Sequence record: OR525700
Direction: 5' to 3' (one strand)
From: Escherichia phage vB-Eco-KMB37
DNA length: 64,000 nucleotides
In this document: piece after piece, positions 32,354 to 46,491 of the stretch
Layout of the letters: every line of letters starts with the position of its first letter
Position numbering within the stretch: the stretch's first letter is position 1
Notes under the pieces: model-generated
Database searches by the model: none
What the model was told of the DNA's origin: nothing
What the model saw: the letters and a program-made list of their open reading frames with translations, nothing else
Position numbers and translations under genes: made by a program

Positions 32354-34933
32354 TCAGTGACAAGACGCCCATGAGTTACCAACATCGTAACCAGCAGTGA
32401 GAGGTACATTAAGATTGTAATACTCACCAGCTTTATTAACAGCGATAGATGCTAATTCTCCAGCACGACTATAGGCTGTAAACCAACCACCTTTTGGAGA
32501 TTCATGTACGTTAGCCCAAATCTTGCCAGTACGTTTCTCTTCCTCTTCTTTCCAGGCATTAACTTTATCCAAACATTCTTTATCAATTTTCTTTTGTTCT
32601 TCTGGATCATCAACTTGAGTCCAACCTAAAGATTCTTTAGAGAACCATTTAAAATGCACCAGATCACGAGTTACTTCAAGCTGTGCTTCATCGTGATATG
32701 CAATCATTTGTTGAACGAATGACTTATTTTTCCAGTCATCAACAAAAAAGTCAACAGCTAATCCTTCTTCTTCGATAAGATCGTCGTAGATAACCATTGC
32801 TCTTTTTGCACAAATAACACCACCACTCTGGAACAGAGAGTTAAGTATTGCGTGTGCAGATCGTGTAGGTACTTTTCTACCATCAATACCAAGAATGTAT
32901 TTCTTACCTGTTTTAACCCAAAAATCATGCAGACGTTCTTTAAGAAGCGCAAGAGGTTTTGCAGCTTCCCAGAAAGCATCGTATACAAGCTGTCCTGTAT
33001 ACATATCACTACCTATAGTTTTTGCTACTTTTGCAGCTTGAGCACCATAAGTAATACCATACTTAACAGATTTAGCAGGGCTTCGTTCAAACTTACGACC
33101 AATAGTGTCAGAAATACGTCGAGCCATCATTGTATGAACATCATTAGGTTTTTCCAATAATAGAGCATTACAATACTCGTGTGGTTCCTGCTCGTACCGC
33201 CAACAGTAGTGTGATTCTATTTTTGCCTCAAGAGAATCAAAGTCATAACCAATTTGGAAGTATTTTGGAACTTCTACACCAAATAAGTTACGCATTTCAT
33301 ATCCGTACAGAGATGTTACACGTGGGATATTTGCTACTAACCTATGTTTCATACGAGACGTAGCTGCATCACACGTTGCAGCAGGGGTTGGTATACGACC
33401 ATCAGCCCTTACTGCCGCCAGATAACCTTTATCGTAATCCTCTTCATCTTCTTCCCAATCCGCACCACCGCCTAGGATAGAGTTTCTACGATGTTTATAC
33501 GTAAGATATTGCACAATCTGCGTAGCATAAGGAAACTTTTCACCCAGTGCTTCCAAGTTAGGACAAATATCTTTCTCTTGCCCTTTTGTAAAGGAAGGGT
33601 TAGTAAGCACTTTAACACCACGACCTTTAGCCTTAGCAATACGATCTCTTAGTTTCCATTCCAAAGTTTCTGGTGTGCACTCCAGATGATCACATCTGTC
33701 CTGACAGAAGTTAGATGCTAATGTTTGATCAACATAGTCACGAATAGCTTTCTCCATTTGTGCTTCATCTTTCTTAATCTTAGTGCCAGATTTAAGAGTG
33801 ATATCTTTATCTTTGTATTCAGATGGACTCCAACCTAAACCAACTAACCAATTTTTAATATGTGTAGTGTCGTCTAAAGTAGCAGGTACTGTAGGATCAC
33901 AAATAGGTTCTTCTGCTGGAATAGGGAGTTTAAACTCTTTACCTAATGCAAATAACCACCAACCATCTTCTTTTTGTACAAGTTCGCCAGAATGTTTCTC
34001 TGCAAACTTTATCATGTTACTTGAAGGTTCACCATTCTTTTTAAACTGTAGTTTAGGTGGAATGAATGATTTCAAATAACCTTTAGTAGCAGGTTTGGGA
34101 GGTAGTACAGGTTCTGCCTCTAAACGACATGCTTCCATTCGAGCATCCAGATCACGAATATTATCTTCTGCTTGTTTCATATTGAAAGCAAAGCCACGGT
34201 GCTCTTGACGTGTAATAATATCCGCTACACGTTGTTCTAAGTTAAATGGTTCAGACCACTTATTATAATCACCCCACTCTTCCATCAAATAACGGAACAC
34301 TGCGGTGTTAGCTTTGTTATCGTAAATACAGTAATACAGCATATCTGCTGCAAATGTTTTAAATCTTTCAGTTTCAGGGATGTTTTTTCTAAAATCAATT
34401 TTAACATCCCCTCCAGCTTTCTTAGATAACTCTGCCAGACTATGACCACCGAAGCGATCAGGGTTTAGTGTCTTACTTAAGATCATAGTATCACAAATTT
34501 CAATGTTACTATTACCCCAAGTATTGTACTTAATACTGTAGTTGAGTTTAAAAAATAATTTAATTGCTAGTAAGTCAAAGTTAATGATGTTATGTCCAAC
34601 TACTTTGGTAATTTTATAGTTTGAATTACCTTTAAATTTACCTGTTCCATTTACAAAATCAGGAAAATCTTTAAGAGGGAAATGGGTATATTCTAAATGC
34701 TCATATTCCTCCAGTCGGTATTCATACTTTCCGTCAGTCTCAACATACGGACGACCATCGAAAAGATATTTATCACCATCATGGAAAGCAATAATCTCTC
34801 CAGTATCATGACTTTCGCACACAATACAGTGCATTGCAAAACTATCTTTTAAACGATATGGACTTGCCAAGTAATCTACACTTTCGTCATTAAGCAAGTT
34901 GTTACTTTCAATGTCGAAAGTAAAAGCTCCCAT
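32354..34933 (-). CDS. DNA polymerase, family A, with 3-prime-5-prime exonuclease domain
   Basis: 859 aa; Exo I-like FDIES near N-terminus, motif B-like KSVKYGITYGA, motif C-like YHDEAQ; RBS AAGGAGGGAG. Confidence 0.8.
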   Translation of the reverse strand: MGAFTFDIESNNLLNDESVDYLASPYRLKDSFAMHCIVCESHDTGEIIAFHDGDKYLFDGRPYVETDGKYEYRLEEYEHLEYTHFPLKDFPDFVNGTGKFKGNSNYKITKVVGHNIINFDLLAIKLFFKLNYSIKYNTWGNSNIEICDTMILSKTLNPDRFGGHSLAELSKKAGGDVKIDFRKNIPETERFKTFAADMLYYCIYDNKANTAVFRYLMEEWGDYNKWSEPFNLEQRVADIITRQEHRGFAFNMKQAEDNIRDLDARMEACRLEAEPVLPPKPATKGYLKSFIPPKLQFKKNGEPSSNMIKFAEKHSGELVQKEDGWWLFALGKEFKLPIPAEEPICDPTVPATLDDTTHIKNWLVGLGWSPSEYKDKDITLKSGTKIKKDEAQMEKAIRDYVDQTLASNFCQDRCDHLECTPETLEWKLRDRIAKAKGRGVKVLTNPSFTKGQEKDICPNLEALGEKFPYATQIVQYLTYKHRRNSILGGGADWEEDEEDYDKGYLAAVRADGRIPTPAATCDAATSRMKHRLVANIPRVTSLYGYEMRNLFGVEVPKYFQIGYDFDSLEAKIESHYCWRYEQEPHEYCNALLLEKPNDVHTMMARRISDTIGRKFERSPAKSVKYGITYGAQAAKVAKTIGSDMYTGQLVYDAFWEAAKPLALLKERLHDFWVKTGKKYILGIDGRKVPTRSAHAILNSLFQSGGVICAKRAMVIYDDLIEEEGLAVDFFVDDWKNKSFVQQMIAYHDEAQLEVTRDLVHFKWFSKESLGWTQVDDPEEQKKIDKECLDKVNAWKEEEEKRTGKIWANVHESPKGGWFTAYSRAGELASIAVNKAGEYYNLNVPLTAGYDVGNSWASCH

Positions 34934-35429: not shown

Positions 35430-37202
35430 TTAATAAGAACCAGCAGAAATATTTTCTGGGTTACTTGTGTATTGATCGTAATCGTGAAGTGTAGCTGTTT
35501 TAATCTCATAGAAGAAACTACCTGCTGCACCAGTCTCTGAGAACTCACGGTTCTTTAGAATGTAGCAATATGTGCGGTTACGTTCCATAGGATCTTCAGC
35601 TTGTTTATCACGCTCCAGCGCAATTGTGATACCAGCACCTTTAGCAAGGAAGCTACTACCCATTGCATCATCTTCTACAATATGTTCATTACTATTGTTA
35701 GAAGACTTTTTAACGTGTGAAATTACAACAATGGTTATTGCGTACTCTTTCATAATGCGTTTCAGCCACGTCGCAAGTTCCTCTTGTTGTGACACGTCCA
35801 TACCAGAAAGCAAGTCAGAATAAGGGTCGATAACAAGAATGGTTACTCCGAAATAAATAATCATTTCCAGAACCTTCTCTTTAATCACATCTACGTTAGC
35901 TCCACGATCATCACAAACATAGAAACGTGGTGTTCCATCTTCTCGTTCGTAAAAATCACGAATCTTTTCTTCATTATCTTTTAAAATCTTTTCCTTCTCT
36001 TCTTTCGTTTTACGGTGAAGAGGGATATGCAAGAATGAAGACAGTAAGTTACGAGAATACTTCTTATACGTTGCCTCCAAAGATAAAATACCAAGAGTAT
36101 GTTCTGGGTGTGCAAGAATAATGTGTTTCGTAATCTCGTTAACCAACAGTGTCTTACCGATACTTGTTTTTGCAAGTATAACAGTAATTTCTTCTTCTAC
36201 CAAGCCTCCACCTAACATATTAGAAGCAACACGCATGAATGGAGGAAGGGTGATCATTTTAGCTTCCAGGCATTCCAAGGCTGCTTCATACAGTACGTTA
36301 GAAGCATAAACACCAGCAGGTGTGTACAGTTTAGCTTTGAAAAAGCGATCAATAAAATGATCAATTTTTCCTTCTACTAGTGCCTGGTTAGGATCTTTAA
36401 CATCCGTTAGTTCCATCACGTAAACTTTATTACGTGGTAAGATTTTAACACATTTCTCAACTGCTGCACGTCCAGCTTCATCATTATCCATACATAGAAC
36501 AATCTTTTTAAATTGATCTAAGAATTTATAACGATGTTGAAGCTGCTTATGCAGAGATGTTTCGCCACAAGTACCAGATACTACAGCAGGAACAGGATAT
36601 TTACCACCCTTGTTATAATCTTTTAGCATCTGTGTTGCAGCCAGCATATCGTGTTCACCACCAACGATTAGAATAGTACCGCTGTGGTTACGATATTTAA
36701 ACTCCCCAAAAAGATCACAATCCTTTCCTGTTTCACCGATAGGATGTGAGAAATCTTTTGGATCGATACGTTGTTTATACCCAGCAATATTGTAATCTTT
36801 AGTTGTAGGGTACAGTGTTGAAATTACTTCGCCAGTAGCTTCATCGTACATATAACGTACACCGAAAGGCTTAGAGATATCTTCACGAATACCGCGATAA
36901 CCTTTTGGATTAGTTCCAGTGCTGGCTTTTAGTTTATCATGTACTTCTGGATTAAACTCACTACCCAAGATATCCTCCTCTTCAATTTCTTCGCCGTGTG
37001 CATTTAACCATTTTTGATCAGGGATAGTAAAGCCACAAGAAAAACAATGTGCGCCTCGATGGTCTTCATCGGCATCTAAGCCATATACCATCAAATTGTT
37101 TTGTGATCGATCACGCCCTCCTTTCATACAACGAGGACACCCAGTATGTCCTTCTTGACTTAGATCAATGTTATACCCATATTTATTTACAACATAAGAC
37201 AC
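35430..37202 (-). CDS. DNA primase-helicase (zinc-finger/TOPRIM primase fused to DnaB-like helicase)
   Basis: 590 aa; N-terminal CPRC...CFSC zinc motif, TOPRIM-like region (IVGGEHDMLAA, CMDNDEAG), Walker A (AKTSIGKT) in C-terminal half; GTG start with AGGAG RBS. Confidence 0.75.
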   Translation of the reverse strand: MSYVVNKYGYNIDLSQEGHTGCPRCMKGGRDRSQNNLMVYGLDADEDHRGAHCFSCGFTIPDQKWLNAHGEEIEEEDILGSEFNPEVHDKLKASTGTNPKGYRGIREDISKPFGVRYMYDEATGEVISTLYPTTKDYNIAGYKQRIDPKDFSHPIGETGKDCDLFGEFKYRNHSGTILIVGGEHDMLAATQMLKDYNKGGKYPVPAVVSGTCGETSLHKQLQHRYKFLDQFKKIVLCMDNDEAGRAAVEKCVKILPRNKVYVMELTDVKDPNQALVEGKIDHFIDRFFKAKLYTPAGVYASNVLYEAALECLEAKMITLPPFMRVASNMLGGGLVEEEITVILAKTSIGKTLLVNEITKHIILAHPEHTLGILSLEATYKKYSRNLLSSFLHIPLHRKTKEEKEKILKDNEEKIRDFYEREDGTPRFYVCDDRGANVDVIKEKVLEMIIYFGVTILVIDPYSDLLSGMDVSQQEELATWLKRIMKEYAITIVVISHVKKSSNNSNEHIVEDDAMGSSFLAKGAGITIALERDKQAEDPMERNRTYCYILKNREFSETGAAGSFFYEIKTATLHDYDQYTSNPENISAGSY

Positions 37203-37214
37203 ATGATTCTCCTA

Positions 37215-37484
37215 CTAAAATGATTCGTTTGTCTCCATAATATATTGCATTTCCAAATCTTCCATATGTTTCTTAAATTGGTAAACAATTTCCGATGGGG
37301 AAATATCTATATCAAAAAGTTCTTTTGTACCAGAATAAAATCTAATACCATCAACAATAAGACCACCATAATAATCCCAATCACTTTCTCGTGAGAAAGG
37401 GTTAGGTTCTTCATAATAGTAATCTACTTCAACAATAATAGGTTCTTTATTATCTTGTTTATACTCAAAATCAAAAGTGTTCAT
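37215..37484 (-). CDS. hypothetical protein
   Basis: 89 aa acidic protein; translationally coupled to the downstream glycosyltransferase gene. Confidence 0.4.
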   Translation of the reverse strand: MNTFDFEYKQDNKEPIIVEVDYYYEEPNPFSRESDWDYYGGLIVDGIRFYSGTKELFDIDISPSEIVYQFKKHMEDLEMQYIMETNESF

Positions 37485-38428
37485 TATAAATCCTCGATAA
37501 GCAGTCTGCGGGTTTCATTTAAATCATCAATATTGTAGTTATCTCTTACATACTTAGCAAGAGCCAATCCTTTCTCAATACAAACATCAGGAGATTCGAT
37601 TAAGTATTCTACAATATCTTTCCACTCTTTAACTGAATCAGCAAAGAAGATTAGATCTTTAAATTCTTCAGTATAGTAGTTCTCTCGTGGTGAACAAACA
37701 AGTGGCAAACCTTTAGCACCAGCTTCAAGAATTTTTAAATTACTTTTGGCATTATTAAAATGATTATTTACTAACGGAGCTATGGAGATTTGATGACCAT
37801 CGTATGCTTCCATATAACACTCATAAGGACGAATACCTTCATAAACACAATCTGGTTGAATATCTTCTTTAATTTGCAACCATTGAGCACTACTTAACTC
37901 TTCGTGATCTCTACGAAATCCACATAAAGTTAAATCTTTACCAAAATCAGGAAGAATTGCTAAATCATGTTTATGTGTTTCACTTCCCGCCCAAACCAGT
38001 GGACTTTTAGAATAACGGTCTTTCGTAAGAACAAACTGTCCTTCATCAAAAGGTAATCCGTTAGGCACAATATGTACATTATCATTGTATTGGCTTAATT
38101 CAACCTTTAATGCCGGAGTTGTTGTAGTTACAAGATCGCTTCTTTCAAGGAACCATTTTAGGTCATCTCGGATTTGATTTTCAAATAGTCCTTCAAGCAT
38201 ATGCCCTTCAGGAATAATTAAAGAATCATCCAGATCCATTACCAATTTAAACCCAAGTTGTTTAAGAGCCAGGAAACCTGGCTTTCCACGTGTTGGTACT
38301 CCATTGAACACAAAAATATTATGCTTAGGATTAATGGTCAGTTTGCGTTTATATGGCAAAATGATCCTATGAAAATCACATACACTATACTTTTCATTTC
38401 CGCGTGTGTCAAGAATAATATTAGGCAT
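37484..38428 (-). CDS. glycosyltransferase, GT-B fold (paralogue 1)
   Basis: 314 aa; C-terminal motif SNLKILEAGAKGLPLVCSP resembles the GT-B (GT1/GT4-like) nucleotide-sugar binding region; clear paralogue of the next gene; RBS AAGGAG. Confidence 0.5.
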   Translation of the reverse strand: MPNIILDTRGNEKYSVCDFHRIILPYKRKLTINPKHNIFVFNGVPTRGKPGFLALKQLGFKLVMDLDDSLIIPEGHMLEGLFENQIRDDLKWFLERSDLVTTTTPALKVELSQYNDNVHIVPNGLPFDEGQFVLTKDRYSKSPLVWAGSETHKHDLAILPDFGKDLTLCGFRRDHEELSSAQWLQIKEDIQPDCVYEGIRPYECYMEAYDGHQISIAPLVNNHFNNAKSNLKILEAGAKGLPLVCSPRENYYTEEFKDLIFFADSVKEWKDIVEYLIESPDVCIEKGLALAKYVRDNYNIDDLNETRRLLIEDL

Positions 38429-38439
38429 ATAACTCCTTG

Positions 38440-39414
38440 TTAAAGACTTTCAATAACTTGACGACGCAGTTCATTGGCATCTGCAAGATTATAATTAAGA
38501 CGAACGTGTTCTGCAAGCATCATACCACGATCTTCTGTGTATCTAGGGTTCCTCATTAGCTTGACAACTTCATAATGCCAAGATGCTTTAGAATCTGCAT
38601 AGATAACAGCCTTTGCATCTACCGGATTGAAGTACGGCAGCACAGGAGAACAGATAATAGGAAGACCCTTTGCACCTGCTTCCAAAATCTTCAAATTGCT
38701 TTTACAGTTGTTGAAGTCATTATCTACCAGGGGAGCAATTGCAATACTGTGACCGTCATACACAGACATATACTCACCTAAATTTTTAATAGCTGGTTTA
38801 TACTGTGCATTTGGAATTTTACGTTTTATTTTAACCCACTCCGCAGTAGTTAGATACTGACTGTTATTTCCAACAGGTGCAGAAGGATACACTTCATACC
38901 CTGCAATTGTCAATAGTGTATCATCAAATGTATTAGCTACAAGAGATAAATCAGGCTCGTGGCTTGCTCCTCCAGCCCAGATAATAGGCGTGTCAGAATT
39001 ACGGTCTTTTGTCAAAGTAAATTGACCTTCGTCGTAAGGTAGTGCGTTTCTAATTACGACAACATTACGGTTTAAATGACGAATTTTGTAAGCTAGGTAT
39101 TCTGTTGTTACAGTAACAACATCTGCTAACTTAACCATCTCTACAATAGTCTTTGAATGATTAGTAAATACGCCAGCCATATAATGTTCAGGATTAAGTG
39201 AATAAAAGTCATCTAAATCAACAATAATCTTAACACCTTGTGCTTTCAGACGTTTAACCTCATCTGATCCACGAGAATACACTCTATTAAAAACTAAAAC
39301 GTCTTTCTTAGGCTTAAACGTATTTCCCGCAAATGGCATTACAATACGATGGTAATCACAACCACTGCCTAACTTATTATCACACTTAAGTACAGGAGTA
39401 TTAGGATTTACCAT
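38440..39414 (-). CDS. glycosyltransferase, GT-B fold (paralogue 2)
   Basis: Start trimmed to ATG at 39414 (GAGGAGG RBS); shares blocks with paralogue 1 (YDEGQFTLTKDR, SNLKILEAGAKGLPIICSP). Confidence 0.5.
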   Translation of the reverse strand: MVNPNTPVLKCDNKLGSGCDYHRIVMPFAGNTFKPKKDVLVFNRVYSRGSDEVKRLKAQGVKIIVDLDDFYSLNPEHYMAGVFTNHSKTIVEMVKLADVVTVTTEYLAYKIRHLNRNVVVIRNALPYDEGQFTLTKDRNSDTPIIWAGGASHEPDLSLVANTFDDTLLTIAGYEVYPSAPVGNNSQYLTTAEWVKIKRKIPNAQYKPAIKNLGEYMSVYDGHSIAIAPLVDNDFNNCKSNLKILEAGAKGLPIICSPVLPYFNPVDAKAVIYADSKASWHYEVVKLMRNPRYTEDRGMMLAEHVRLNYNLADANELRRQVIESL

Positions 39415-40087
39415 ATTTTTGAGCCTCCTCATAAGAGATAAAAGTTTTACCATTGCGAAGATCCTCCAGAGATTGTTTATATTGTTCCCAGTTTACACCA
39501 ATCCCCTGTTCTTTCTCTTCTTTTGACAGATTCGCAAAAGGTAAAGGATTGTCTCCAAATACATCATCAGGATGGATAAACGCCATAATTCGAATAGGGC
39601 ATGGCACGCCTTGAATACCTCGGTTCAAACCTGCCAGTGGAACGCGATGAATCCACTCTGCATCTTCATATCCATAACCGTGGGTGTATGAACGGAAATA
39701 GCCAGCTTTCTCAATAACTGCACGGGAATACATACCAAACTGGCACATACCTAGTTCCCAAATAACCACTTCCCCTTCAATACCTTTTACTTTATCTTTA
39801 AAGTATTCAGGCATACCAAAGAAATCCCAACCATTTTCCTTCGCTTGTTTTACAAAATATGTTTCCCAACCTTGAACAACAGGATAGCAATCATCATCAA
39901 AAATAAACCAGTAATCATACCCTTCATCATAAAACTTTTTCATCAGTTCATTACGAGCATATGCAACACCTTTTCGTTCCCGATCATACTGTACAACAAA
40001 AGTAGCATTAGGATCAGTCACAAGATAATCTTTAAGAGGACGCTTACCTACAGTAATAACACCAACACCAATTTTTGTATTTTCCAA
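39401..40087 (-). CDS. glycosyltransferase family 2-like (GT-A fold)
   Basis: 228 aa; GVGVITVGKR N-terminal strand, ARNELMKKF, DXD motif FDDDC, and GYGYEDAEW block typical of GT2 enzymes; TTG start with AAGGAG RBS. Confidence 0.6.
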   Translation of the reverse strand: MENTKIGVGVITVGKRPLKDYLVTDPNATFVVQYDRERKGVAYARNELMKKFYDEGYDYWFIFDDDCYPVVQGWETYFVKQAKENGWDFFGMPEYFKDKVKGIEGEVVIWELGMCQFGMYSRAVIEKAGYFRSYTHGYGYEDAEWIHRVPLAGLNRGIQGVPCPIRIMAFIHPDDVFGDNPLPFANLSKEEKEQGIGVNWEQYKQSLEDLRNGKTFISYEEAQKYGKS

Positions 40088-40096
40088 AATAACTCC

Positions 40097-40660
40097 TTAA
40101 ATAATTTTATTCATGTCTTGACAATGTAAAAGGTGTGAAATAGCTTTTCTAGGATCATCATTACCTAAACGGTATGTGTGAAATAAGTATAACCCACGTA
40201 GTAAACCTAGCCTTTTATTGTTAGCGTGTAATGCTTTAGAGAAAATTATATCAAACTGTATTGATCTTTCCTCAAAAGGGATTTCATTCCACAGGCTCTT
40301 ACGAAAGAGAAGAAAGAATCCTGCTAAGATAGCATCTGTAGGTACTTCCTCTATTGAGTTTCCCCATTCTAGATGTGCTCTTTTTGCAATCTCAATGTGG
40401 TGTAATATATTTGGATCTTCACTTCTTTCATTATTAAATAATTGATATGTTGATCCCAATCTATTACAAGATGCACCAAGAACATCAAAATCAGGATTTG
40501 AACGGACTATTGATTCCAGCCAAGCAGGTTGTTCTGGAAGAAGAAACATTGTATCAATGTCTCTTAGGCAAATCCAACTATCTTCTGGTAAGACACTTAT
40601 TGTGTCATTGATACCTTTTCCAATATCCCCAGAAAGATAGGGAGTTATGTGAAATATCAT
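40097..40660 (-). CDS. putative nucleotide-sugar transferase-like protein
   Basis: 187 aa; contains D-x-D-like motif (ICLRDIDTMF); assignment tentative and partly based on its position in a run of glycosyltransferase genes. Confidence 0.3.
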   Translation of the reverse strand: MIFHITPYLSGDIGKGINDTISVLPEDSWICLRDIDTMFLLPEQPAWLESIVRSNPDFDVLGASCNRLGSTYQLFNNERSEDPNILHHIEIAKRAHLEWGNSIEEVPTDAILAGFFLLFRKSLWNEIPFEERSIQFDIIFSKALHANNKRLGLLRGLYLFHTYRLGNDDPRKAISHLLHCQDMNKII

Positions 40661-40717
40661 ACTCCCTCCGTATTATTACTTTAGCATTTTTAGACTAAAA
40701 AGTCCAAATGGTTTTAC

Positions 40718-40912
40718 CTATTGATTACGTTTTGCGAGTTCCATTTGGATAGCTAAACTGTGATCTCGTGCTTCCATATACTCTTTATATGTTTCATTAA
40801 GATGATCACGACAAACATCACGCAGTTTAATCAGTTTATCTGTAGGGATACCACTAAGATCATCCCAAGATTTTACAACTTCACCAGTATCATTGATCCC
40901 AATGGTTTTCAT
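40718..40912 (-). CDS. hypothetical protein
   Basis: 64 aa ORF in the minus-strand operon. Confidence 0.35.
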   Translation of the reverse strand: MKTIGINDTGEVVKSWDDLSGIPTDKLIKLRDVCRDHLNETYKEYMEARDHSLAIQMELAKRNQ

Positions 40913-41168
40913 CTACAACCTCCTTAATTGCTACAGCACAGTTTTTGCAGATACACTGCCCTTTACCTTTAGAAATCTGGATGTAAGGTTCATTTTCATT
41001 TTCGCCCTTACGTGAGTCATATATTACAGAATTGAAGCACACAACGCAAATATTTTTTAAGATTGTATACTTATCAACTTTCTTTTTTGTTTTAAAGTTA
41101 ACTTCAATAACATCAGCCATCAGTGTAACACTCCCAGTATGTTGCTTTGTAACATAACCATAGAACAT
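40890..41168 (-). CDS. hypothetical zinc-ribbon protein
   Basis: 92 aa; two Cys pairs (CVVCFNS ... CICKNC). Confidence 0.4.
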   Translation of the reverse strand: MFYGYVTKQHTGSVTLMADVIEVNFKTKKKVDKYTILKNICVVCFNSVIYDSRKGENENEPYIQISKGKGQCICKNCAVAIKEVVDENHWDQ

Positions 41169-41408: not shown

Positions 41409-41918
41409 TTAGCGATAGAATTGATGTTCTTTGTAGCGGTACACTAGAACCATATCTTTTTCCCAGTGTGCTCTTATTGTAGATTTTTTAAAGTATAATG
41501 CTCCTTTTGTAATATCTAATGCAATTCGTAATTCTGGAAAATGGTTATCGAGATAAAGTAGACGTTCTGCTATAGCTTTAGCGTCTTTCCACTTATCGTG
41601 TTCCATAACGTTGAATGTCTTTGTGTAAGAGAATTGTCCTTTCTGAAACAAAACTTCTTTTATAGTATCAGGGAAATATGAATCTCTAGCCCTATTCAAT
41701 ACTACATTACCAACAGCAGACATACCGCGCTTTCCTTGATTACGACTTTCTGCATAGATTGCACAAGCTAATAGATTTTCTTTACTATCACGCTTTGTAC
41801 ACTTGTGAACTACTTTAGCAGTTTTTACGTTTGCAGCTTCGGCTTGCGCCACAACAGGTGTAAATGTAAAAGCAGTTAAGGATAGTAACGCAATTGCGAC
41901 AAAGGTTTTTATTGACAA
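41409..41918 (-). CDS. cell wall hydrolase, SleB-like (candidate endolysin) with N-terminal signal peptide
   Basis: 169 aa; hydrophobic N-terminus ending AQAEA; core LLACAIYAESRNQGKRGMSAVGNVVLNRARDSYFPDTIKEVLFQKGQFSY matches the SleB/Hydrolase_2 family; RBS AGGAGG. Confidence 0.6.
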   Translation of the reverse strand: MSIKTFVAIALLSLTAFTFTPVVAQAEAANVKTAKVVHKCTKRDSKENLLACAIYAESRNQGKRGMSAVGNVVLNRARDSYFPDTIKEVLFQKGQFSYTKTFNVMEHDKWKDAKAIAERLLYLDNHFPELRIALDITKGALYFKKSTIRAHWEKDMVLVYRYKEHQFYR

Positions 41919-41949
41919 ACTTGCCTCCTATTTTGTTAAACGAACTTTT

Positions 41950-41978
41950 ATTGTAACACAGAAGAGGCTATTTTGCAA
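41950..41978 (-). promoter_or_regulatory. candidate sigma70-type promoter for the hydrolase gene
   Basis: On the minus strand: -35 TTGCAA (41973-41978), 17 bp spacer, -10 TACAAT (41950-41955). Confidence 0.45.
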
Positions 41979-41980
41979 GT

Positions 41981-42001
41981 GGAGGGGGACTATCCCCCTC
42001 T
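41981..42001 (-). terminator. GC-rich hairpin (candidate terminator)
   Basis: GGAGGGGGA-CTA-TCCCCCTC; downstream U-tract weak. Confidence 0.4.
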
Positions 42002-42010
42002 TACACTCTG

Positions 42011-42613
42011 TTAGATATTGTAAACCTTTGTATGAGTTACTACATCATCTTCTACAAAATCAATACGTTCTTGATCCGTGACTAGTGCAGACAACACTTT
42101 AAATTTAATTTTTACACGTTCAAAAGCTGGTTGACCATCTTTAAGATAATTATGTTCGGTTGTCACTGTCTTGTTTACAAAATCAACTTTTGCTTTACCG
42201 TTTTCGCGTAGGTGGAATGTTTTTCCTGCTTTGTACACAATTTCAACATTACCTTCGAGAGTAATTCCTTCAAAAAGTTCACCCTCTTCTTCATTTTCTT
42301 CACTTTTGAACAGACGACGAAACTCTTCCATATCAAGATAAACAACATCTTCAGAATAACTATCAGTAAGATATGTCTTACCCTCCATCAACCCGAAATA
42401 TTGCCAGATTGCCGAATAAACATCACTAGATGATCCAAGGGTTTCTCTGAGTTTAGTTCCACGGATTACTTCATAAACTTCAAAATTGAAACCAGACTGC
42501 AAAGCATCAAACAGCACATCACTAACTTCTAAAGCATAATCTTCATTGTTGTCAATATCTACAAGAAAATTGCCGCTGCGAATAAGTTTTTGACCTTCTA
42601 AAGTAATACTCAT
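42011..42613 (-). CDS. hypothetical protein
   Basis: 200 aa; RBS GAGGAGAAAA; no motif recognised. Confidence 0.45.
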   Translation of the reverse strand: MSITLEGQKLIRSGNFLVDIDNNEDYALEVSDVLFDALQSGFNFEVYEVIRGTKLRETLGSSSDVYSAIWQYFGLMEGKTYLTDSYSEDVVYLDMEEFRRLFKSEENEEEGELFEGITLEGNVEIVYKAGKTFHLRENGKAKVDFVNKTVTTEHNYLKDGQPAFERVKIKFKVLSALVTDQERIDFVEDDVVTHTKVYNI

Positions 42614-42640
42614 TGTTTTCTCCTCTTTTATTTCAAATAT

Positions 42641-42656
42641 GCGCCCCGAAGGGCGC
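42641..42656 (-). terminator. intrinsic terminator (UUCG tetraloop on minus strand)
   Basis: GCGCCC-CGAA-GGGCGC on plus strand; minus strand has a U-rich tail (AUAUUUGAAAU). Confidence 0.5.
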
Positions 42657-42677
42657 TATGATTTATTACTTGACGTA

Positions 42678-43274
42678 TTACTCGAACCAATCGTCGCCAG
42701 CGCCAAACGCTTTAACTACATCGTAAATGTCAAGCCCAGCCTTACCTACACCATATGCTTTCAGTTTCCATTCGCTATCTTCTCGCACCAGGGAGGCAAC
42801 GTGGCAAATGGTGTTACCTGCAAGTTCTGGAGCCAAGAAGTCAAAGTCCAGCAGTTCAACATTACGTTCATCATCGAAGATTTTAAGGAAACCTTCGGTA
42901 GCGTGACCAAGGCGTTTCTTACCCGTTTCGTCATCAATAGTAATTACGAATGCAATTTCCTGTGCTTCAGCAGAGATATTATCCAGTGTAACATCAATCT
43001 GCTCCATCTGTCCTACACCATCACGAACATCTTCACCTGCAAAAGTAGAACGTTCAGGATCAAATTTCTGCGCGTAGCACACCAGGTGACGAGGAGACAA
43101 CAGTTCCGGCAGACCAGATGCATTGTGTCGGCAAATCAGAGCACTAACATCCAGATCCAGTTTTTCGTTAGATTTCCAAGAGAATTCCAGACGAATGCGT
43201 TTCAGTGCTGGTGCGATCTTTTTCAGAGAAACTTTTTCGCTAGAACCTTTTTTCAGGGAAATTTTCTGAGTCAT
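42678..43274 (-). CDS. terD: TerD-domain protein (tellurium-resistance TerD family)
   Basis: 198 aa; N-terminal ISLKKGSSEKVSLKK, central GEDVRDGVGQMEQIDVTLD and C-terminal EDSEWKLKAYGVGKAGLDIYDVVKAFGA blocks match the TerD fold pattern; RBS AAGGAG. Confidence 0.65.
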   Translation of the reverse strand: MTQKISLKKGSSEKVSLKKIAPALKRIRLEFSWKSNEKLDLDVSALICRHNASGLPELLSPRHLVCYAQKFDPERSTFAGEDVRDGVGQMEQIDVTLDNISAEAQEIAFVITIDDETGKKRLGHATEGFLKIFDDERNVELLDFDFLAPELAGNTICHVASLVREDSEWKLKAYGVGKAGLDIYDVVKAFGAGDDWFE

Positions 43275-43311
43275 AATTTATTATCTCCTTTGTTGTTAAT
43301 TTACGTTGTCT

Positions 43312-43339
43312 ATTTTACTAATCTTTTCTACAAAGTCAA
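43312..43339 (-). promoter_or_regulatory. candidate sigma70-type promoter upstream of the TerD gene
   Basis: On the minus strand: -35 TTGACT (43334-43339), 16 bp spacer, -10 TAAAAT (43312-43317), about 40 nt upstream of the start codon. Confidence 0.5.
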
Positions 43340-43346
43340 GCGTTTT

Positions 43347-44141
43347 TTACGCTTTTGCTCCGAATTTTTTAACCCACTCACCAAACTCTTCGGATAACAG
43401 TTTATCGTAAAGTTCTTCATCAGACAAGGACAAATCTGCAATACCGATAAAATCAACATTATCGTATTCTTTTGCCAAGTCTTTCAGGAATTTAAAGTTT
43501 GCATTACCTACACCAACCATAAACCAGTAAACAGGCGTATTGCGGTGTTTGTTCAGTAAGCTACGTACTGCTGAAGTATCCATGTTCTCCCCGTCAGTTT
43601 GGAAGAAAATCATTGCAGGAGTACGATCAACTTGTGCATCAGTATCTACAACCTGTTCTACAACAGTACGTGTTACTTCTACAAGTTCTTTTTTACCAGT
43701 TAGTTTAGCAAGGAAACCCTTAGCTGGGACTTCTTCATACTCAACAACTTCGCGTGTAATATTTTTCATAGGTACACTACCGAAGTATGTATCATAGATC
43801 TCTTGCATTACTGGAGCATAAGCAGTACCACCGTTGATGCAAACATTAGACATGCAAGAGCCGACATAATCATCATACACATCAGCCGTTGCAGGAGGCA
43901 GTTCAAAAGAAGAACTATTGAAAGCCCACATGTCAATCTGTGCATTATCATCAAACTTCATACCAAACGGCAGCAGTTTACCTACAAAATCACTAACAGT
44001 GCCATCACGATACAGCTCACACATACTACCCGAAATATCTAAGGCGCTACCGACACGAAGAACAACATCGTTAATCTTTTTCTTACGCAGAGATACAGTA
44101 AGAGTTTCTTGACGTTTTTTAAGACTGATTTTATTGGACAT
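43347..44141 (-). CDS. von Willebrand factor A (vWA) domain protein, TerY-like context
   Basis: 264 aa; MIDAS-like DxSxS motif (DISGSM) and downstream T and D positions; N-terminal ISLKK...VSLRKK resembles the TerD N-terminal signature. Confidence 0.55.
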   Translation of the reverse strand: MSNKISLKKRQETLTVSLRKKKINDVVLRVGSALDISGSMCELYRDGTVSDFVGKLLPFGMKFDDNAQIDMWAFNSSSFELPPATADVYDDYVGSCMSNVCINGGTAYAPVMQEIYDTYFGSVPMKNITREVVEYEEVPAKGFLAKLTGKKELVEVTRTVVEQVVDTDAQVDRTPAMIFFQTDGENMDTSAVRSLLNKHRNTPVYWFMVGVGNANFKFLKDLAKEYDNVDFIGIADLSLSDEELYDKLLSEEFGEWVKKFGAKA

Positions 44142-44142
44142 A

Positions 44143-44412
44143 TTATTTCCCCTTTCTGAGTGTAATGTTAGTAACTTCTAAATCCACTTCTACCATTTCT
44201 GTATCATATGAAATACAGCTAAGTTGACCTCTTTGTGAACCGTTCAGACACATTGCTTGGTTTGTATTAACTTTAATAAACACTAAGTTTCTGAACGTAT
44301 CTAAACCAGAATCTTGATACGCAACATAATATACGAATGTATCACCTGCGTCAAGTTCTCCAAAACATTTAGGTTCATCTGATTTATCGTCTTTGATATT
44401 AAATTTAAGCAC
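44143..44412 (-). CDS. hypothetical protein
   Basis: 89 aa; translationally coupled within the operon. Confidence 0.35.
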   Translation of the reverse strand: MLKFNIKDDKSDEPKCFGELDAGDTFVYYVAYQDSGLDTFRNLVFIKVNTNQAMCLNGSQRGQLSCISYDTEMVEVDLEVTNITLRKGK

Positions 44413-44968
44413 TGTCTTCTCCTTTACCTGCTCTCAAACCTAAATAGAAAGCCTCTCTGGTGATCTTTTGCAACTCGTTTAAAGAGATAGTTACAACTAA
44501 ATCATCTTCAATTTCTAGCTTTGAGTCTTCTTCTGTCTCAATGCAAGTATTATGCACTTTGTGGTAAGGATTGTCAACACGTTTAAATTTATTATTTTCA
44601 GTGCTGAAGAAGCAATCTGGATCTTCTTCTCCATCACCCCAGCCCTGGTTAGGGTCTTCTTCAGATCTTTCTGTTGGGATCTCACCTGTAAAGTGCTCTT
44701 CTAATACCATAGCGATACCATCTCCAAGATCGGAAGAGAACATCAAATTACAAACTTCTTCCCAAGGCATAGACCACTTAAAACTTTTACGATTGCCATG
44801 TTTATCTTCTTCGTTAGAGAAAACACTACCATAGCTATCATAATTGCCATACATCTCTTCAACAACTTTACCACCTTTCAAAAGAAATAGGTAGCAAGGA
44901 GAGCCATCGAAAGAGGTAGAAAGAGCAGCATTACCAGACTCTTTGCACAAGAAACTAAAACACCCCAT
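44405..44968 (-). CDS. hypothetical acidic protein
   Basis: 187 aa; D/E-rich, no motif recognised. Confidence 0.4.
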   Translation of the reverse strand: MGCFSFLCKESGNAALSTSFDGSPCYLFLLKGGKVVEEMYGNYDSYGSVFSNEEDKHGNRKSFKWSMPWEEVCNLMFSSDLGDGIAMVLEEHFTGEIPTERSEEDPNQGWGDGEEDPDCFFSTENNKFKRVDNPYHKVHNTCIETEEDSKLEIEDDLVVTISLNELQKITREAFYLGLRAGKGEDSA

Positions 44969-45168
44969 TATACACCAGCCTTAAGATCAATTAAAGCCAA
45001 AGTTGTTTCAGAATGTGTTTGCTCGTCTACAGGTGCAGTCATATGATAATACAAAAAGTCTTCGGCATCATACCAATCTGACTCTTGACCTTGTTTCCAA
45101 CCATCAATGAAAGCATCTTCCATAATGGTTTGTAATTCTTCACGAGTTAAGTGAATATCTTTATTCAT
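44968..45168 (-). CDS. hypothetical protein
   Basis: 66 aa. Confidence 0.35.
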   Translation of the reverse strand: MNKDIHLTREELQTIMEDAFIDGWKQGQESDWYDAEDFLYYHMTAPVDEQTHSETTLALIDLKAGV

Positions 45169-45401
45169 TACACATTCTCCTCTTTTACCAATTCCATCGT
45201 TGAACTATCAAAACCATCTTTAGAAGAATAGGTATAGACAGAACGTAGTTCTCGCAGGACAGTAAACACATTAGGATCATCTAACCAAGCATCCTGGAGG
45301 AGAACATAACGATCTTCATTGTCGTACTGGACAGCGATCATAGAACCAGACAGTTTGTAAATTTTAATATTCATAATATATTTCTCCTTAAAGTAGACCA
45401 C
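45168..45401 (-). CDS. hypothetical protein
   Basis: 77 aa. Confidence 0.35.
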   Translation of the reverse strand: MVYFKEKYIMNIKIYKLSGSMIAVQYDNEDRYVLLQDAWLDDPNVFTVLRELRSVYTYSSKDGFDSSTMELVKEENV

Positions 45402-46491
45402 GTTTAACAGTTTGAATCATACCATCTTCAAGAGATTGCACTTCTTGAATGTAATCAATACGAGCAGCACGGGCTTCAGTGTTGATCCGATTAGTTTCTT
45501 CCAACATTTTAACTAAGTTTTCTTGATCGCGACGTAATGTTTCAATATCCAATACTTGACGATTAGCAAGTTGCGTAGCTTCAATTTGGTTTTGTGCAGC
45601 CAGATCACTACCCATTGCAATAGCAGCATTAAACTCATTCAGTACATTGTTCTGTGTATCGGCTGCTTTCTTCTGGCGTAGACTTTCAATATACATAGAA
45701 AAGTTTGCAGAGTAAGCAGGAATAACATTATTCACAATGTTACGTGCTGATCGCATCAAACTTGCAGATACTTTCTGCATACTTTGTACACGTGGCCCCA
45801 TCTGAACACACAGTAAACGCAAGGCTTTCAGGTCTGCAATACGAATTTCAAGCAGATCCATAGTATCACGAGTACGTTGACGCTCTTCTACTTCATTTTC
45901 AGGTAGTGTATTAAGGCGAACTTCTTCTTTTTCATAAGTAGCTGTTAGAAGCTCTATATCCCTGTTTAAGCTAAGAGCATATTTTGCAATAGCCTCTTCT
46001 AAACGTTGCAGATATCGTAAAGAATCTTCTTCTTTTTTCAAATCTGTTTGGAGTGTCTTTACCAAACCTTCAATACGATTATTGATGGTGTCAAATTCAC
46101 CAAACAAATCTTCTTTCATACCTAATACTTTCTTAACTAGCTTACCTAAGCCTTTAGATTGTTTAATAGAGTTAGGATCAAGTTGCTTTGCTTGCTTAAT
46201 AAGTGCAGTTAAACGTTCACTCATTTCATCTCCCTGAGATGAACGCTGGTGTTTAAGCACTTCAGCATTAAGGTTACGAAGAGTAAGTCCTGCATCAGCA
46301 CCAACTTGTTCAATCTCTTCACGAGACATTGGAGGCAGCATTTGTACAGGTCGTGCAACAGCAGGGGCATATACAGGGCTTGCATCCATAGCACTTGGAG
46401 CAAACAAAGACTTACTTTTTTCTGTTGTTGCCGTGAATACACTCATTTCAGACGGTTTGCTTTTTACGGCACTGATAAAAGGACTGGACAT
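45388..46491 (-). CDS. TelA-like toxic-anion-resistance family protein
   Basis: 367 aa; long predicted coiled-coil architecture with disordered N-terminus, similar in size and organisation to TelA/KlaA proteins; GGAGGAA RBS; sits within a TerC/TerD neighbourhood. Confidence 0.45.
   Translation of the reverse strand: MSSPFISAVKSKPSEMSVFTATTEKSKSLFAPSAMDASPVYAPAVARPVQMLPPMSREEIEQVGADAGLTLRNLNAEVLKHQRSSQGDEMSERLTALIKQAKQLDPNSIKQSKGLGKLVKKVLGMKEDLFGEFDTINNRIEGLVKTLQTDLKKEEDSLRYLQRLEEAIAKYALSLNRDIELLTATYEKEEVRLNTLPENEVEERQRTRDTMDLLEIRIADLKALRLLCVQMGPRVQSMQKVSASLMRSARNIVNNVIPAYSANFSMYIESLRQKKAADTQNNVLNEFNAAIAMGSDLAAQNQIEATQLANRQVLDIETLRRDQENLVKMLEETNRINTEARAARIDYIQEVQSLEDGMIQTVKRGLL

Follow-up and report, generated by a model that had tools for sequence, protein, structure and literature searches.

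Chlorovirus PBCV-1 glycosylates its major capsid protein in the cytoplasm with its own nucleotide-sugar enzymes and several glycosyltransferases (GTs; A064R and others), rhamnosyltransferases among them. For the mycobacteriophage Che8, the original paper, by Freeman et al. in 2023, reportedly attributes the particle glycans, those of the tail tube included, to phage GTs. The capsid proteins of Che8 carry covalently attached glycans, according to the summary given in PMC11256854. In other phages, pathways with multiple GTs are known that build glycans on DNA (bioRxiv 2023.12.21.572611). Here we analyzed a cassette of four genes at positions 37484-40660 of a 64,000-nucleotide stretch of Escherichia phage vB-Eco-KMB37 (sequence record OR525700; "the window" denotes this whole stretch). 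All four genes encode GTs, and together they probably build a rhamnose-containing glycan on a target other than DNA. Virion proteins are the acceptor we favor, tentatively and at somewhat less than an even chance.

Four glycosyltransferase genes of a phi92-like phage

The four genes, here called A to D, lie head to tail on the minus strand in the order D, C, B, A, followed by a small open reading frame (ORF), orf89, and the primase-helicase gene. Gene D (40097-40660, minus strand), the equivalent of phi92 gp166 and bas60_0051, encodes a 187-aa protein of predicted GT-A fold. Gene C (39401-40087, minus strand) encodes a 228-aa protein, also of predicted GT-A fold, from a TTG start behind an AAGGAG Shine-Dalgarno sequence. 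Genes B (38440-39414, minus strand, 324 aa) and A (37484-38428, minus strand, 314 aa) encode GT-B paralogs. An alternative upstream ATG at 39453 would extend B to 337 aa, but the short start at 39414 is more likely because the Phapecoctavirus-like ORF (contigs L012 and L013) is 328 aa long and the largest cluster of homologs is 324 aa long. The first-pass annotation of this DNA had proposed four glycosyltransferase-like genes here, and the proposal is upheld by the ORFs, by matches to Pfam and PHROG families, by GT-A structure models and by conserved motifs.

Protein C contains the sequence WFIFDDDCYP, and F63, D64, D65 and D66 are invariant among 17 homologs, as is a YGxED motif. Its AlphaFold2 (AF2) model, with a predicted local distance difference test (pLDDT) score of 89.6, has a GT-A fold and matches GT-A enzymes with a Foldseek probability of 1.0, the closest solved structures being STIV A197, WrtF, TarP and the collagen galactosyltransferase ColGalT1. 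A fold search of BFVD with C returned only generic viral GT-A proteins and no functional information. The protein matches phrog_2456 (E=2e-79), and its score against the Pfam family TAGT (PF20691), 24.1 bits, fails the gathering score of 27.5 and comes from residues 16-79 only, the generic DxD half. Pfam matches of the 17 homologs are likewise weak: TAGT in 11 (best E=3.9e-5), GT2 in five and Glyco_transf_7C in four. Window C itself gave no match to PF00535 (Glycos_transf_2) at E<=1. Judged by sequence, C is thus related to the GT2-like GT-A families and is not a member of them by the PF00535 test. It had been described at first pass as a clear GT2-type GT-A enzyme with a DXD motif; the GT-A fold and the FDDDC motif stand, but the GT2 label was overstated, its matches being below threshold.

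Protein D matches phrog_14179 (E=5e-113) and has no Pfam or NCBIfam match. Its AF2 model (pLDDT 92.9) shows a minimal GT-A fold, and D34-x-D36 and H161 are invariant, which bears out its earlier description as sugar-transferase-like. The closest PDB fold is the Listeria monocytogenes TDP-rhamnose transferase RmlT (E=2e-4, TM-score 0.47, 16% identity). From their models, both C and D are predicted to be GT-A glycosyltransferases of the metal-dependent type with a DxD motif.

Proteins A and B share 41% identity (E=1e-81), and A passes the gathering score of Pfam Glyco_trans_1_2 (PF13524; 26.8 bits against 25), so that the duplicated GT-B pair seen at first pass is confirmed. The matches of B to Glyco_trans_1_4 and Glyco_trans_1_2 are weak and below threshold (18.0 and 14.4 bits). 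Both proteins match phrog_7162, "glycosyltransferase" (A, E=2e-145; B, E=6e-149), and PF13524 or PF13692 is precomputed on many of their homologs. By these sequence relationships, A and B are placed in the GT-B fold and the GT4-like clan. Within the EX7E motif only the second glutamate is invariant (E235 in "KILEAGAKG"), while the position of the first is occupied by Ala227, beside invariant K228 and S229. A profile of the A/B family shows weak similarity to two GT4 enzymes, MshA and TreT, over the C-terminal domain for the nucleotide sugar (PDB E ~0.01), a match which is probably the source of the label "putative disaccharide synthase" in the BASEL record. Neither single-sequence nor profile searches of PDB sequences were of use for A, C or D. 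The isoelectric points (pI) of A, C and D are acidic, at 5.1-5.6, and that of B is mildly basic, at 8.2-8.9. No transmembrane or hydrophobic segment was found in A, B, C or D.

Each of the four GT genes has its own Shine-Dalgarno sequence, and neighboring genes of the block are separated by spacers of 9-12 nt or overlap by 1-14 nt. No terminator-like site was predicted inside the cassette; promoter and terminator scans gave no enrichment over shuffled sequences and no signal within the cluster, and Rfam and repeat searches of the cassette region found nothing. Between the window and PaulScherrer, dN/dS is 0.036 for A, 0.030 for B, 0.049 for C and 0.022 for D, and values of 0.02-0.05 indicate that A-D are functional genes under strong purifying selection. 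The genes had been described as lying next to the primase-helicase gene (35430-37202, minus strand). They are close to it, but a conserved ORF, orf89 (37215-37484, minus strand), stands between it and gene A. The product of orf89 is an acidic 89-aa protein of phrog_4240, a family without an assigned function. Its pI is 4.1, and its start overlaps the stop of gene A. It occupies the position between the last GT-B gene and the primase-helicase gene in nearly all Stephanstirmvirinae-like loci and does not accompany the GT genes in distant phages; its membership in the cassette is uncertain.

The source phage is a phi92-like myovirus of the genus Justusliebigvirus, subfamily Stephanstirmvirinae. 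Positions 37000-41000 of the window are 98-99% identical in nucleotide sequence to Escherichia phages alia, phi92 and PaulScherrer (Bas60) and to about 50 other Justusliebigvirus phages, and 52 of the 56 records that match this region cover at least 80% of the query. Genes A-D are the counterparts of phi92 gp163-166, all four of which are labeled "glycosyltransferase" in RefSeq and likewise in PHROGs; the BASEL record labels two of the genes "putative disaccharide synthase" and two "putative glycosyltransferase". Literature searches found no experimental studies on the phi92 genes gp163-166. The cassette has therefore been annotated already and commented on in two papers, its possible role having been speculated upon in print, and the advance made here is a set of narrower hypotheses rather than a new kind of system. 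What is new is the recognition of a core GT-A/GT-B pair that also exists as a natural fusion, an estimate of how large the family is, the occurrence with rml genes in the same subfamily, and a proposed shift from a DNA to a protein acceptor, probably one of the virion.

Also among the matches to the window are GenBank records MG065639, MG065655, MG065656, MG065644 and MG065689, which are named "Campylobacter phage" and give C. jejuni as the host. Some of them are more than 95% identical to phi92-like phages of E. coli and others match the same proteins at the level of rV5-like phages. The C. jejuni host labels of these records seem doubtful.

A conserved GT-A/GT-B pair and its probable link to rhamnose

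We compared 23 viral contigs carrying a homolog of C and several further loci found by exact protein look-up. Nearly all Stephanstirmvirinae-like loci have the order D-C-B-A-orf89-primase/helicase-DNA polymerase, with a cluster of Ter-type stress-response genes upstream. Contigs L004 and L022, which belong to more distant large phages, and Klebsiella phage 05F01 lack gene A and have D, C and a single GT-B gene. A GT-B homolog directly adjoins C in nearly all loci fetched, the exceptions being L027 and L029, and D accompanies the pair in the distant loci L026 and L031. Single-copy GT-B proteins in other loci match B best and never A; C and B are thus likely to be the ancestral core and A a younger duplicate. 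Two of the 150 best matches of the C family (P0168 and P0169, 550 aa each) are natural fusions in which a C-like domain at residues 2-215 is followed by a GT-B domain resembling A and B (profile E=4e-30 and 2e-28), and these provide independent evidence that C and GT-B act together. Tight spacing, the lack of an internal terminator, the adjacency of C and GT-B and the C-GT-B fusion all point to one pathway.

The C family is large. When 1.84 billion representative proteins were searched exhaustively with a profile, 1,562 clusters reached E<=1e-3, and 575 of them E<=1e-10. Most of the further representatives looked up lie on contigs of 1-8 kb whose other genes are not informative. In cultured phages beyond its own subfamily, homologs of C are confined to about 350 mycobacteriophage glycosyltransferase domains, of the Cheoctovirus Che8-type locus; BobaPhett gp104, for example, is about 26% identical to C (E ~1e-7). 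A scan of 185,579 representative bacterial genomes found a single match, a weak negative that comes from one degenerate peptide pattern, and this sole match is 76% identical to C and looks like a fragment of a Phapecoctavirus-type phage, so that the scan revealed no prophage or host locus.

Outside the Stephanstirmvirinae, the module adjoins morphogenesis genes in six to seven lineages. In L031, D-C-B is followed by two small ORFs and then by the genes for large terminase, major head protein and portal. L028 has a tail-fiber gene, B, C, a small ORF and an HNH homing endonuclease gene, followed by large terminase, portal, protease and major head protein. In the late region of L024, L030 and L032, the C-B pair is located upstream of the terminase and portal genes and is preceded by an endolysin gene in L030 and a Q antiterminator gene in L032. 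In L026, C-B-D lies about 1.3 kb upstream of the genes for tail terminator, major tail protein and tape measure. A nucleotide-sugar epimerase gene and a GT-B homolog (E=1e-16) are followed by terminase, portal and major capsid protein genes in Streptomyces phage Zuko. A conserved GT-A/GT-B pair, sometimes fused, beside morphogenesis genes in several unrelated lineages is a generalization that can be tested.

The probable sugar is suggested by genes elsewhere in the genome. In the phi92-like genome, the genes for RmlB, RmlA, RmlC and RmlD adjoin those for ribonucleotide reductase, beyond the window and at a distance of about 70 kb from the cassette, and these phage rml genes were noted earlier by Olsen et al. 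2020 (PMC7552041). We searched 50,697 phage records for homologs of RmlA and of C and compared the results as counts and genera. RmlA homologs occur in 54 records at >=95% identity and in 72 at 60-80%; the corresponding figures for C are 55 and 71. The same two genera, Justusliebigvirus and Phapecoctavirus, appear for both proteins among the matches listed, and most other RmlA matches are stray bacterial-like records. Both rmlBACD and the GT genes, in the form of D, C and a single GT-B, are also present in Klebsiella phage 05F01. All of the carrier phages are related, so that the co-occurrence could reflect shared descent. Between D and C, contigs L004 (2667-3737) and L022 (8619-9683) have a gene for a 354-356-aa NAD-dependent sugar-nucleotide dehydratase/epimerase, 27-30% identical to RmlB.

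Taken together, the co-occurrence, the resemblance of the D fold to RmlT and the dehydratase gene inside the cassettes of L004 and L022 make dTDP-rhamnose (dTDP, deoxythymidine diphosphate) the most likely donor for at least one step. Protein D is the candidate rhamnosyltransferase; its match to RmlT is weak, and donor specificity is not readable from such a match. We considered whether the GT-B duplication arose together with the rml pathway, and rejected this because 05F01 has rmlBACD but a single GT-B gene. The suggestion made at first pass that four enzymes in a row imply a multi-step glycan is plausible in light of the co-transcribed genes, the conserved C/GT-B pair, the C-GT-B fusion and the dTDP-rhamnose pathway in the same subfamily.

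Virion proteins and other possible acceptors

In the reading that we favor, A-D would form a single cytoplasmic glycosylation pathway co-transcribed with the primase-helicase gene. The GT-A enzyme C and the GT-B enzyme B would be its ancient two-enzyme core, to which the small GT-A enzyme D and the duplicated GT-B enzyme A would add further sugars, and at least one step, most likely that of D, would use dTDP-L-rhamnose made by the phage RmlBACD enzymes. As in Che8, glycosylation would take place in the cytoplasm, before the particles assemble or while they do so. Its acceptor would be at least one abundant virion protein of the capsid, decoration, sheath or fibers, and the outcome would be a particle with a coat of short rhamnose-containing O-glycans. 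The donor sugars, the order of the steps and the acceptor are what we infer. A late-acting, virion-directed function fits the position of the module beside morphogenesis genes in other lineages, and gene context in other phages favors virion proteins over host polymers, the two other targets raised at first pass. Enzymes that are soluble and cytoplasmic also suit a virion target. The dedicated four-enzyme rhamnose pathway further suggests a target that is abundant and modified stoichiometrically. Still more tentatively, the C/GT-B pair, with D and A as add-ons, could be a portable virion-glycosylation cassette by which phi92-like and phAPEC8-like coliphages are coated with a rhamnose O-glycan from their own dTDP-rhamnose.

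Several observations weigh against virion proteins as the acceptor. No report of glycosylated phi92-like virions was found in the literature. The arm of the window that holds the cassette is that of replication and host takeover, not that of the structural genes. Accessory "moron" genes, too, are commonly found just upstream of terminase, and because structural genes fill 35-50% of small phage genomes, the count of six to seven contexts beside morphogenesis genes, out of about ten, is only a moderate enrichment. The fold matches of C and D are generic to GT-A enzymes, with TM-scores below 0.5. Direct comparison with Che8 gp108-110 gave BLASTP E-values that were all >=0.39 for A-D, and hhalign probabilities stayed below 1% for C against gp108, C against gp109 and D against gp110. 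A possible correlate of glycosylation sites was also considered and ruled out. The tail sheath protein (772-2178, plus strand) has a low-complexity C-terminal extension rich in serine and asparagine (S/N-rich; ...NRTANSQNSNSSTVSS), but Phapecoctavirus SKA64 has the cassette and a sheath without the S/N-rich tail, and the C-terminus of rV5-like sheaths is different.

DNA is the acceptor that the known multi-GT pathways of other phages and the company of replication genes would bring to mind. The GTs would in this case protect the phage DNA from nucleases by glycosylating hydroxymethylated or otherwise activated bases, possibly only at rare sites with a specific motif. In favor of this, the cassette shares its transcription with the primase-helicase and DNA polymerase genes, the best Pfam match of C is the TET-associated DNA glycosyltransferase family TAGT, C weakly matches the PHROG of the T-even beta-glucosyl-HMC-alpha-glucosyltransferase, and the genome encodes Dcm-like and Dam-like methyltransferases. 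Rhamnosylation of hydroxymethylated nucleotides has indeed been proposed for these phages by Olsen et al. 2020 (PMC7552041). In the BASEL phenotyping, however, phi92-like phages were "exceptionally susceptible" to restriction-modification (RM) systems "despite a putative dTDP glycosylation machinery" (PMC8594841), and this sensitivity weighs against glycosylated DNA. The TAGT match of C is below threshold and limited to the generic DxD half, and membership of C in that family is rejected on its score and on a context in which the proteins sampled include no TET/JBP member. The acidic pI of A, C and D also counts against a DNA acceptor.

Genes that would supply an activated base likewise did not turn up among the proteins sampled. 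The "thymidylate synthase" bas60_0224 of PaulScherrer (contig L003, 16025-16996, 323 aa, outside the window) matches only ThyX, at 35.5 bits against a cut-off of 87.9, and from its sequence it is best described as a divergent FAD-dependent ThyX-like enzyme rather than a hydroxymethylase of the ThyA fold. To our knowledge, all known pyrimidine hydroxymethylases originate from the ThyA fold. A genome-wide sample of 30 mid-size hypothetical proteins, rather than every ORF, contained no member of the TET/JBP, 2-oxoglutarate (2OG)-oxygenase or ThyA families; it included the neighbors of the Dcm-like methyltransferase, which lies about 60 kb from the cassette and has no oxygenase neighbor. The GT pair is also present in lambdoid-type phages with Rep-O, NinB/G, RusA, the Q antiterminator and an S24 repressor, where no DNA-modification family was seen near it among the 25 of 33 neighbor families listed. 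We consider a DNA acceptor highly improbable. Glycosylation of modified bases for anti-restriction, one of the roles raised at first pass, is unlikely given the RM sensitivity of phi92-like phages, the ThyX-like synthase, the sample of 30 proteins and the failed TAGT match.

The same lambdoid contigs, in which the GT pair occupies a typical moron slot, bear on a second alternative, that the cassette remodels the host envelope. Working on the cytoplasmic side of the inner membrane, the GTs would modify a lipid-linked host glycan, which could be the lipopolysaccharide (LPS) core, enterobacterial common antigen, NGR or an O-antigen/capsule intermediate. Rhamnose side chains would then mask the receptors of the phage itself, preventing superinfection and the loss of progeny on debris. 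Several fold neighbors decorate cell-wall polymers (the phage-encoded TarP, RmlT, WrtF and heparosan/chondroitin synthases), the GT4-like GT-B clan to which A and B belong is one that typically assembles LPS and exopolysaccharides, B has a mildly basic pI of 8.2-8.9, and phi92-like phages depend on surface glycans, namely LPS core glucose and the NGR glycan (PMC8594841; PMC11990801). Yet the enzymes have no transmembrane or amphipathic anchor, three of the four are acidic, and no flippase, polymerase or Gtr- or Wzx-type partner accompanies them. The late-gene strand on which the pair lies in the lambdoid contigs would mean expression just before lysis and not in the lysogen, which counts against this role, and the module of L026 and L028 lies within the tail and head genes or directly abuts them. 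The near absence of the C family from the bacterial genomes, in the weak single-pattern scan, is also not what lysogenic conversion would lead one to expect. We regard an envelope glycan as the main rival to virion proteins but as a doubtful acceptor, and receptor masking as a doubtful purpose to the same degree.

A third alternative arises from the Ter-type cluster (Hydrolase_2, TerD, vWA-TerF, TelA and TerC), which adjoins the cassette in nearly all Stephanstirmvirinae-like loci, and from the macrodomain, phosphoribosyltransferase (PRTase) and HAD genes found further along in PaulScherrer. The acceptor could be a host protein, modified as by an effector GT, or else a small molecule, for example the proposed nucleoside-like metabolite of the Ter/PRTase/HAD module, with host takeover or counter-defense as the purpose in either case. 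The fold matches include protein O-glycosyltransferases (LH3, ColGalT1 and ppGalNAc-T), but Pfam and NCBIfam revealed no similarity to effector GTs such as EarP and NleB. The linkage to Ter genes is seen in one phage lineage only and may therefore reflect shared ancestry; no Ter homolog was detected beside the cassette in L004 or beside the module in distant phages. Here, too, a rhamnose pathway of four dedicated enzymes speaks for a stoichiometric, abundant target. Such an acceptor seems unlikely, less so than DNA.

If virion proteins are indeed the acceptor, this would be the first virion glycosylation system among phages of Gram-negative bacteria, and with about 1,560 clusters in the GT-A family, particle glycosylation would be far commoner than the known actinobacteriophage cases suggest. 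With their broad host range, phi92-like and phAPEC8-like phages are candidates for phage therapy. A glycan coat would alter how the particle is recognized by antibodies and cleared, how stable it is and how it adsorbs, effects which have been reported for mycobacteriophages, and for this reason the acceptor of the cassette is of practical interest. Phi92-like phages, being restriction-sensitive, should not be assumed to carry glycosylated DNA.

The surroundings of the cassette include further genes of note. The Ter-type stress-response cluster lies directly upstream, at 41409-46491 on the minus strand, and continues beyond. It begins with a Hydrolase_2/SleB-like cell-wall hydrolase (41409-41918, minus strand), which has a signal peptide and is predicted to be secreted, followed by TerD (42678-43274, minus strand), a vWA-TerF-like protein (43347-44141, minus strand) and TelA (45388-46491, minus strand); the Ter-type clusters of relatives also have TerC and Band_7 genes. 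On the other side, the DNA polymerase gene (32354-34933, minus strand, 859 aa) is free of an intein, while the same gene carries one in PaulScherrer and in viral contig L011 (1104 aa). The BASEL record annotates an intein also in a UvrD-like helicase.

Comparison with described glycosylation systems

The cassette shares individual features with several described systems. The retaining GT-B enzymes MshA and TreT, which are GT4-like, resemble A and B in that A passes Glyco_trans_1_2 and the family profile matches their C-terminal domain. The phage proteins differ from them in being short (314-324 aa), in the replacement of the first EX7E glutamate and in an N-terminal domain with invariant DLDD and H76. 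The GT-A enzymes TarP, from a Staphylococcus aureus prophage, and RmlT of L. monocytogenes have a DxD motif, RmlT being the closest solved structure to D, and TarP one of the closest to C. Identity to them is 12-18%, TM-scores are 0.45-0.5, both enzymes are much larger and oligomeric, and their acceptor, polyribitol-phosphate, does not exist in E. coli.

The T4 alpha- and beta-glucosyltransferases and the TAGT pathways that build glycans on 5-hydroxymethylcytosine also combine phage GT-A and GT-B enzymes, sometimes in rows, near replication genes. Here, by contrast, no TET/JBP or hydroxymethylase partner was found among the proteins sampled and the phage is hypersensitive to RM systems; the sole match to the T-even DNA glycosyltransferase families is one of 43 residues, to phrog_842. 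Chlorovirus PBCV-1 is similar in encoding nucleotide-sugar enzymes together with several GTs, but this eukaryotic virus uses multidomain enzymes and makes N-linked glycans, and none of its enzymes is in the top 50 PDB fold matches listed for C or D.

The Che8 system differs from the present cassette, which belongs to a phage of a Gram-negative host, is located in the replication arm and is accompanied by a full dTDP-rhamnose pathway. What the two share is a small cassette of soluble phage GTs. The three GT genes of Che8, gp108-110, lie just before an HNH endonuclease gene at the genome end, and this slot, upstream of HNH and terminase or head genes, is the one which the C/GT-B module occupies in most lineages outside the Stephanstirmvirinae.

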